Below are positions 5,540-5,615 of a stretch of DNA of 17,213 nucleotides, one piece after another; position 1 is the first letter of the stretch, and the number at the start of each line of letters is the position of its first letter. The notes under the pieces are model-generated. The model had not been told where the DNA came from, made no database searches, and saw only the letters and a list, made by a program, of their open reading frames with translations. This stretch comes from a virus (Duplodnaviria > Heunggongvirae > Uroviricota > Caudoviricetes), in the IMG/VR virus record IMGVR_UViG_2681813004_000008, positions 1-17,213 of that record. One strand, given 5' to 3'. The position numbers and the translations under genes were made by a program.

Positions 5540-5615
5540 AACTATAGTTGTTTTATCGTCAACAACGAAAGTTGTTTTATTGGTTGTTTTAGATGTAACT
5601 GGTTGTATTTAGGAT
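5540..5615. promoter_or_regulatory. OL-like operator cluster (GTTGTT / AACAAC repeats), probable pL region
   Basis: GTTGTTTTA at 5547, 5571 and 5583, GTTGTATTT at 5602, inverted AACAAC at 5561; the same GGTTGTT half-site forms the palindromic operator at 8030-8052 between cI and cro. Confidence 0.4.

Follow-up and report, generated by a model that had tools for sequence, protein, structure and literature searches.

The window, meaning here the whole 17,213-nucleotide stretch of DNA that was analysed, covers the early region of an Escherichia coli lambdoid prophage. Its minus strand carries a bet-exo open reading frame (3278-4672), gam (4678-4974), kil (5050-5256), a PP2C phosphatase gene (5737-6480), a Ser/Thr kinase gene (6477-7202), and the cI repressor gene (7298-7987). 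The plus strand carries cro (8092-8322) and a YdaT-like gene in the cII position (8392-8931; Pfam YdaT_toxin, E = 1.4e-29), to the right of which are the replication genes O and P (8928-10745). The cI protein has 229 amino acids, with an HTH_3 N-terminal domain and a self-cleaving S24 C-terminal domain (Peptidase_S24), and its recognition helix is SQAAIQK. A cI start at 8053 was rejected in favour of the ATG at 7987 (MKTTLSERL...), and the gap between cI and cro is therefore 104 bp. Cro contains a YdaS/P22_Cro-like HTH, whose recognition helix, VSQQAVYK, resembles that of cI.

The YdaS-like cro and the YdaT-family gene recall the racR-ydaS-ydaT module of the Rac prophage, but unlike in that module, the pair accompanies a full-length LexA-like cI here. 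The genes for bet (RecT family) and exo (YqaJ family) form a single minus-strand reading frame of 464 amino acids, with a junction near position 3888. This fusion resulted from a 68-bp deletion relative to the prophage of E. coli 536, in which bet and exo are separate, overlapping genes. The fused frame may be a natural fusion, or the Red module may be defective.

A gap of 480 bp (5257-5736) separates kil from the phosphatase gene. At the right end of the gap is an intrinsic terminator (5705..5732, minus strand), in which a stem at 5732..5715 is followed by the T-run TTTTCTTTT. The terminator closes the cI-kinase-phosphatase operon, is the counterpart of lambda timm, and was kept regardless of which cargo was inserted; the phosphatase/kinase insert sits where lambda has rexAB, and its co-transcription with cI is likely. 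A first-pass annotation had described a cluster of operator-like repeats just past the terminator of the immunity region, and this placement was correct. The repeats fall in an immunity-specific cassette of 96 bp (5527..5622, minus strand), the proposed OL/pL, whose flanks are common to another immunity type. We refer to the cassette and cI form of the window as type A and to the alternative form as type B. The backbone between the cassette and the terminator (5623-5714) was kept in both immunity types and with every cargo, and it includes a 13-bp palindrome, ATCGCATAGCGAT, at 5636-5648.

On the other side of the cassette, a pL leader of ~270 nt (5257-5527, minus strand) precedes kil and was conserved in both immunity types. 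No significant fold was predicted for the leader (271 nt, z = 0.48), and an Rfam scan of positions 4900-8500 at E ≤ 1 returned a chance miRNA match only, with none for the leader. Neither an N-like gene nor a nut site was found downstream of pL in the window, which distinguishes this locus from lambda and 434; in lambda, N is the first gene transcribed from pL.

The repeat cluster is composed of four direct copies, three of them GTTGTTTTA (5547-5555, 5571-5579, and 5583-5591) and one GTTGTATTT (5602-5610), together with an inverted AACAAC at 5561-5566, all present as first annotated. The motif GTTGTWTTW occurred six times in the 17.2-kb window, compared with 1.04 matches expected, and none of 200 shuffled sequences reached six. 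Four of the six matches are in the cluster (5547-5610) and one is in OR. The shorter GGTTGTT, which had been named as the half-site shared with the operator between cI and cro, was not enriched across the window (four copies, 2.24 expected; 38 of 200 shuffles reached four), yet all four copies lie in OL or OR. The half-site is thus shared by the two regions, as had been claimed, but the four direct copies are not equivalent: two of them belong to full operators and the other two are half-sites without a partner.

Judging from the sequence, the operator unit appears to be a 14-bp pseudo-palindrome, ACAAC-N4-GTT(G/T)T, a site of the 434 type to which cI would bind. The 14-mer ACAACNNNNGTTKT was found at four distinct sites in the 17.2 kb (5538, 5562, 7999, and 8046), all of them in OL or OR, whereas 0.13 were expected and no shuffle reached the observed count. 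In OL, the putative sites are OL1 (ACAACTATAGTTTT, 5538..5551, minus strand) and OL2 (ACAACGAAAGTTGT, 5562..5575), the latter with both halves full. In OR, they are OR3 (ACAACCAAGGTTTT, 7999..8012), OR2 (ACGAAAATGGTTGT, 8023..8036), and OR1 (ACAACCATGGTTTT, 8046..8059), all on the plus strand. OR2 has a weak left half and was found at three mismatches to the idealised ACAACCATGGTTGT, a consensus that was built from these same sites. The N4 spacing inside the 14-mers was invariant across the five sites, and the centre-to-centre distances were 24 bp for OL1-OL2 and 24 and 23 bp in OR. OL2 matches the 434 form ACAA-N6-TTGT on both halves, while the other sites have one weaker half; OR2 and OL1 each have one degenerate half.

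A further operator-like sequence, ACCACGGAGGTTGT, is located at 8076-8089 (plus strand), 30 bp from OR1 and over the Shine-Dalgarno sequence of cro. At the same place there is an exact ACAACGGAGGTTTT in a Providencia phage and ACTACGGAGGTTGT in a Klebsiella phage. It may be a true fourth site, or the resemblance may simply arise from the GGAGG of the ribosome-binding sequence.

The first-pass annotation had taken TGGTTGTT-N7-AACAACCA as the operator. In a model built on such an operator, one repressor dimer would span ~23 bp, and the copies in OL would be half-sites of equally long operators or direct-repeat monomer sites. A perfect 9+7+9 palindrome, ATGGTTGTT-N7-AACAACCAT, does occur once, at 8029-8053 between cI and cro, and both of its halves also face each other around the -35 element of pL. 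However, the spacing of the arms was not constant, with 7 bp at OR and 8 bp at pL, in the window as well as in the Klebsiella and Providencia phages described below. Each type A locus had a single copy of the exact palindrome, always in OR, and those two phages had none, even though their recognition helix is identical. Nor does it account for OR3 (7999-8012) or for the conserved GTTTT halves, and the closest structural relative of this cI binds 14-bp sites. The long palindrome is therefore not a conserved unit and was rejected as the operator; its two arms can be read as the right half of OR2 and, opposite it, the left half of OR1. We consider a single dimer over the long palindrome improbable.

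The 14-bp sites are closely interlocked with the putative promoters. For pL, we propose a -35 element TTGACG (5557..5562, minus strand) and, as read from the sequence, a -10 element TTAAAT (5534..5539, minus strand) at a distance of 17 bp, with TAAATA (5538..5533, minus strand; 18-bp spacer) as an alternative -10. Transcription from pL would then start near 5527, at the left edge of the cassette. OL1 fills the spacer of pL and overlaps the first bases of its -10, and OL2 abuts the -35. The putative pR is on the plus strand (-35 TTGACT at 8036-8041, 17 bp, -10 TAATCT at 8059-8064); OR1 lies in its spacer and touches its -10. The putative pRM is on the minus strand (-35 TTGATG at 8022..8017, 17 bp, -10 TACATT at 7999..7994). 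OR3 lies over the spacer and -10 of pRM, while OR2 abuts the pRM -35, extends by one base into the pR -35, and has its centre ~42 bp upstream of the cI ATG. Because only 6 nt separate the pRM -10 from the cI ATG, the cI transcript would be leaderless or nearly so.

A consensus promoter scanner called none of pL, pR, and pRM, and the three assignments are based on position and cross-genus conservation, without a scanner score. The pL -10 TTAAAT does not have the conserved A at position 2. The scanner did call a rightward TTGCGA-16-TATAGT at 5521-5548, which we judged to be a chance match, since the N4 centre of OL1 contains its -10 and it has no type B counterpart.

Sequence variation among E. 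coli prophages largely spared the halves of these operators. The population set comprised 33 distinct type A OL haplotypes, and 11 of the 13 OR variants had the standard length of 104 bp. Among the OL haplotypes and these 11 OR variants, changes were found in the spacers (5555-5556, 5578-5579, 5595, and 5612) and in the N4 centres (5546, 5567, and 8054), whereas the ACAAC/GTTGT halves of OL1, OL2, and OR1-3 were almost invariant. Within OL2, the only changes were at 5567, in the N4 centre, and at 5563 in a single haplotype. OR3 was invariant among the OR variants of standard length, and the pL -10 was invariant in all 33 haplotypes.

The same arrangement was found outside E. coli. The cI N-terminal domain of the window shares 74% identity with that of Klebsiella phage ST101-KPC2phi6.1 and 65% with that of Providencia phage PSTCR7lys, and the helix GVSQAAIQKIETG is identical in both. 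In these two phages, the 14-mers are confined to OR and to a pair, spaced by 24 bp, that lies immediately past the repressor operon, compared with expected counts of 0.04 in the Klebsiella phage and 0.07 in the Providencia phage. In ST101-KPC2phi6.1, the OL pair directly follows rexA-rexB. Both phages have OL1 at the same position and keep the overlap of the operators with TTGAC(N) and GTTTTAAAT at pL: the -35 elements of the three phages are TTGACG, TTGACT, and TTGACA, and the -10 is kept as GTTTTAAAT in the three genera. The weak ACGAA half of OR2 and the hexamers of pRM were likewise kept in the three genera.

We applied an unbiased listing of 5-N4-5 pseudo-palindromes to further phages. 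The ACAAC pattern was also recovered in Salmonella phage UPF_BP1, whose helix is SQAAIQK, and in Erwinia phage phiEt88, whose helix is SQANIQK, so that phages from five genera with SQAAIQK or SQANIQK have ACAAC 14-mers at OR and, at OL, two such sites with a spacing of 24 bp. Phage PA28 (locus L133), with the helix SQPAIQK, has ATAAC-N4-GTTAT instead, at three OR and two OL sites (2921-2983 and 4172-4210). PA28 and the ACAAC group thus differ by one residue and one base, a contrast that would be useful for specificity work. Yersinia phage YP3 (SQGAIQK) was uninformative, with a regulatory gap of 48 bp in which no ACAAC sites were found.

Natural exchanges of the cassette provide a further line of evidence. 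We collected 119 IMG/VR loci by a flank anchor and compared the cassette with cI in 105 of them. Only two forms of the cassette were found among the retrieved related prophages, and the cassette type matched the type of the cI N-terminus, and of OR, in 51 of 51 and 54 of 54 loci with no exceptions. Since the loci are phylogenetically related, independent events must be fewer than 105 of 105 would suggest, and the shuffling of cargo is a better guide to their minimum number. Between OL and cI, at least 20 unrelated cargo clusters were found, ~10 of which were seen with both types. In Lambda_4C10, E. coli 536, and P470, the flanks are nearly identical to those of the window, and 5527-5622 is replaced by an unrelated 96 bp; OR and cI residues 1-45, including the recognition helix, are also swapped, while the remainder of cI is nearly identical. 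Conversely, the cI, OR, and repeat cluster of the window are also found in PhiR47_2, PhiR34_1, and an O157:H7 prophage, where the intervening cargo is different. P470 carries the kinase/phosphatase cargo of the window together with a type B cassette, indicating that the cassette follows cI and not the cargo. Repeated recombination in which cassette and repressor were never mismatched is the behaviour expected of an operator.

The two types also differ in their motifs. The type A 14-mers were absent from type B loci, and a type B motif, (C/T)(A/T)ATA-N8-TAT(T/A)(G/A), which was defined post hoc, was found only in the OL and OR of type B. The position of pL coincides with that of TTGATA-17-TATTAT in type B. 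In both types, cI and Cro share a type-specific recognition helix, and Cro therefore probably uses the same sites as cI. The type A cassette is common: 1083 of 5426 complete E. coli genomes had it, O157:H7 strains among them, and none of the matches listed had an annotation under it. One type B cassette (locus L007, E. coli DG351-2, 4128-4198) was only 71 bp long owing to a 25-bp deletion between two GCTATTG repeats; its pL is probably crippled, because the deletion takes out the -35.

The interval from cI to the OL terminator (5737-7202, minus strand, in the window) is a cargo hotspot in the loci examined (L001-L126). Cargo annotations among the 105 related prophages included, for example, GevT/GevA, HipA/HipD, an ASCH-domain gene pair, and DUF6932. 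A literature search on GevT/GevA and on the PhiR phage accessions found nothing on these operators.

These exchanges also bear on whether the repeats are repressor sites at all. They might be A/T-rich upstream promoter DNA, bent or resembling an UP element, or sites for a host or cargo protein, in keeping with the position of the upstream half-sites in A-tracts (AAAACAACCAAT) and with the two copies that have no palindromic partner. However, the cassette tracks the type of cI and not the cargo, as P470 demonstrates, and the motif is common to OR and differs between the immunity types. A host-protein site would have no need to switch along with the recognition helix of cI. We regard such an origin of the repeats as quite unlikely. 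Still less credible is that the repeats serve as replication iterons or mark a recombination junction where cargo was inserted: the direct repeats do adjoin the cargo-exchange hotspot, but O and P are far to the right (8928-10745), the left boundary of the cargo, at the terminator near 5735, is ~110 bp away with the conserved backbone 5623-5714 in between, and the cassette length is fixed at 96 bp for type A and type B alike.

We conclude that 5527-5622 is very probably OL/pL, with 14-bp operators of the 434 type that the prophage cI would bind. The assignment made in the first-pass annotation was thereby upheld by comparative evidence, namely the co-inheritance of cassette and cI and the conservation in other genera. 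It is also supported by the gene order: a terminator precedes the region, and the early-left genes follow it on the same strand.

Among known systems, the closest solved structure of the cI N-terminal domain was that of the 434 repressor (1per/2or1, E = 4.5e-9), with cI residues 5-68 aligning to residues 2-65 of the 434 repressor without gaps. The 434 genome annotation gives 14-bp ACAA-N6-TTGT operators, with 23 bp between OL1 and OL2 and 31 bp between OL2 and OL3; OL1 is within the spacer of pL, OL2 directly adjoins the -35, and OR3 has one weaker half. The window resembles 434 in its 14-bp sites with the outer bases ACAA...TTGT, in its three OR sites ~23-24 bp apart, and in its S24 self-cleaving C-terminal domain. 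In OL, it likewise has OL1 in the pL spacer and OL2 at the -35, and a candidate third element lies upstream of OL2 at the 434 distance of 31 bp. Unlike in 434, however, the recognition helix is SQAAIQK (TQQSIEQ in 434), position 5 of the half-site is a fixed C (G, T, or A in 434), the candidate OL3 is a half-site only while OL1 and OL2 are complete, and Cro is of the YdaS/P22_Cro type with a YdaT-like protein at the cII position. Given the different helix, the system is 434-like with its own specificity and not imm434. In the 434 complex, Gln28 reads the first A, and the equivalent Gln is kept here as Q31. Gln29 of 434 reads base pair 2; its equivalent is Ala in the window, and in PA28 it is Pro, together with a T at base 2. 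The covariation of this helix residue with base 2 is suggestive, resting on one contrast.

The layout cI-rexA-rexB-timm-OL-pL and the operator spacing are well known from lambda. The window shares with lambda the order of repressor, cargo in the place of rexAB, terminator, and OL/pL facing the recombination genes, as well as a tripartite OR with 24/23-bp spacing and a cI that is apparently leaderless from pRM. It differs from lambda in that the lambda operators are 17 bp long and the N-terminal domains belong to different fold families; the Pfam model Phage_CI_repr scored below the cut-off for this cI. Another lambdoid repressor, that of 933W, also has the 434 repressor as its closest structural homologue (PMC3317979). 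933W has only two OL sites and no OL3 (PMC3317979), and is thus a precedent for a reduced OL. Its sites comprise 15 bp around a central base pair, with another half-site and a helix containing S41 and K42 (PMC3317979), and this different 15-bp site ruled out 933W as having the same specificity.

The two direct copies outside the full operators differ in conservation. The half-site ACAACCA at 5581..5587 (minus strand), 12 bp upstream of the OL2 start, was variable, with position 5586 changed in 6 of 33 haplotypes, and its function is doubtful. The other copy belongs to the candidate OL3 (5593..5606, minus strand), which starts 31 bp upstream of the OL2 start and has a perfect ACAACCA at 5606..5600 and no recognisable second half; its half-site (5600-5606) was conserved among the haplotypes. 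When second halves were sought for the half-sites at 5581-5587 and 5600-5606, none was found, the best fits to the ideal 14-mer being 7/14 and 9/14, respectively, by hand count. All five ACAAC-type phages have an orphan AAAACAACCA in the same orientation, 31-32 or 41-42 bp upstream of OL2, a distance of 3 or 4 helical turns. The half-site at 5606..5600 is probably a weak OL3 that is filled cooperatively, although this is speculative. That a conserved orphan half-site replaces a full OL3 throughout this immunity family is a tentative proposal, for which we would put the chances well below even, and the same applies to a partial cross-recognition with the repressors of 434 or Sf6, to which the exact fit of OL2 to ACAA-N6-TTGT points. 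If an orphan half-site did stand in for OL3, protein-protein contacts would be the main force keeping the third repressor dimer in place, an unusual construction for the long-range OL-OR complex.

Taken as OL/pL, the locus suggests the following regulation, in which binding, promoter activity, cooperativity, and activation are all deduced from sequence features. The leftward pL (TTGACG/TTAAAT, start near 5527) would drive kil-gam-bet-exo. Dimers of cI would bind the 14-bp sites in the manner of 434, with OL1 covering the pL spacer and -10 and OL2 abutting the -35, and occupancy of both sites would turn pL off in the lysogen. On the other side, OR1 and OR2 would cover pR and OR3 would cover pRM. 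The repressors of lambda and 434 activate pRM from a site ~42 bp upstream of the cI start, and OR2, ~42 bp from the cI start, would be the place for such activation here. Cro, with its similar helix, may use the same sites. Cleavage of cI stimulated by RecA would free pL; such self-cleavage is suggested by the S24 domain, with an Ala-Gly site in VSAGPG and the motifs GDSM and VKRL.

The OL/pL described here is an ordinary element of a common, uncharacterised immunity type, and it leaves the picture of lambdoid regulation unchanged. With ACAAC-N4-GTTGT as the operator and the arrangement of OL and OR defined, immunity groups of prophages would become assignable from sequence, and a known operator would allow the design of virulent mutants and reporters. 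The layout also marks the limits of the cargo hotspot between cI and OL. Finally, the type A and type B cassettes would constitute a natural pair of helix swap and operator swap for studying the specificity of 434-like repressors.
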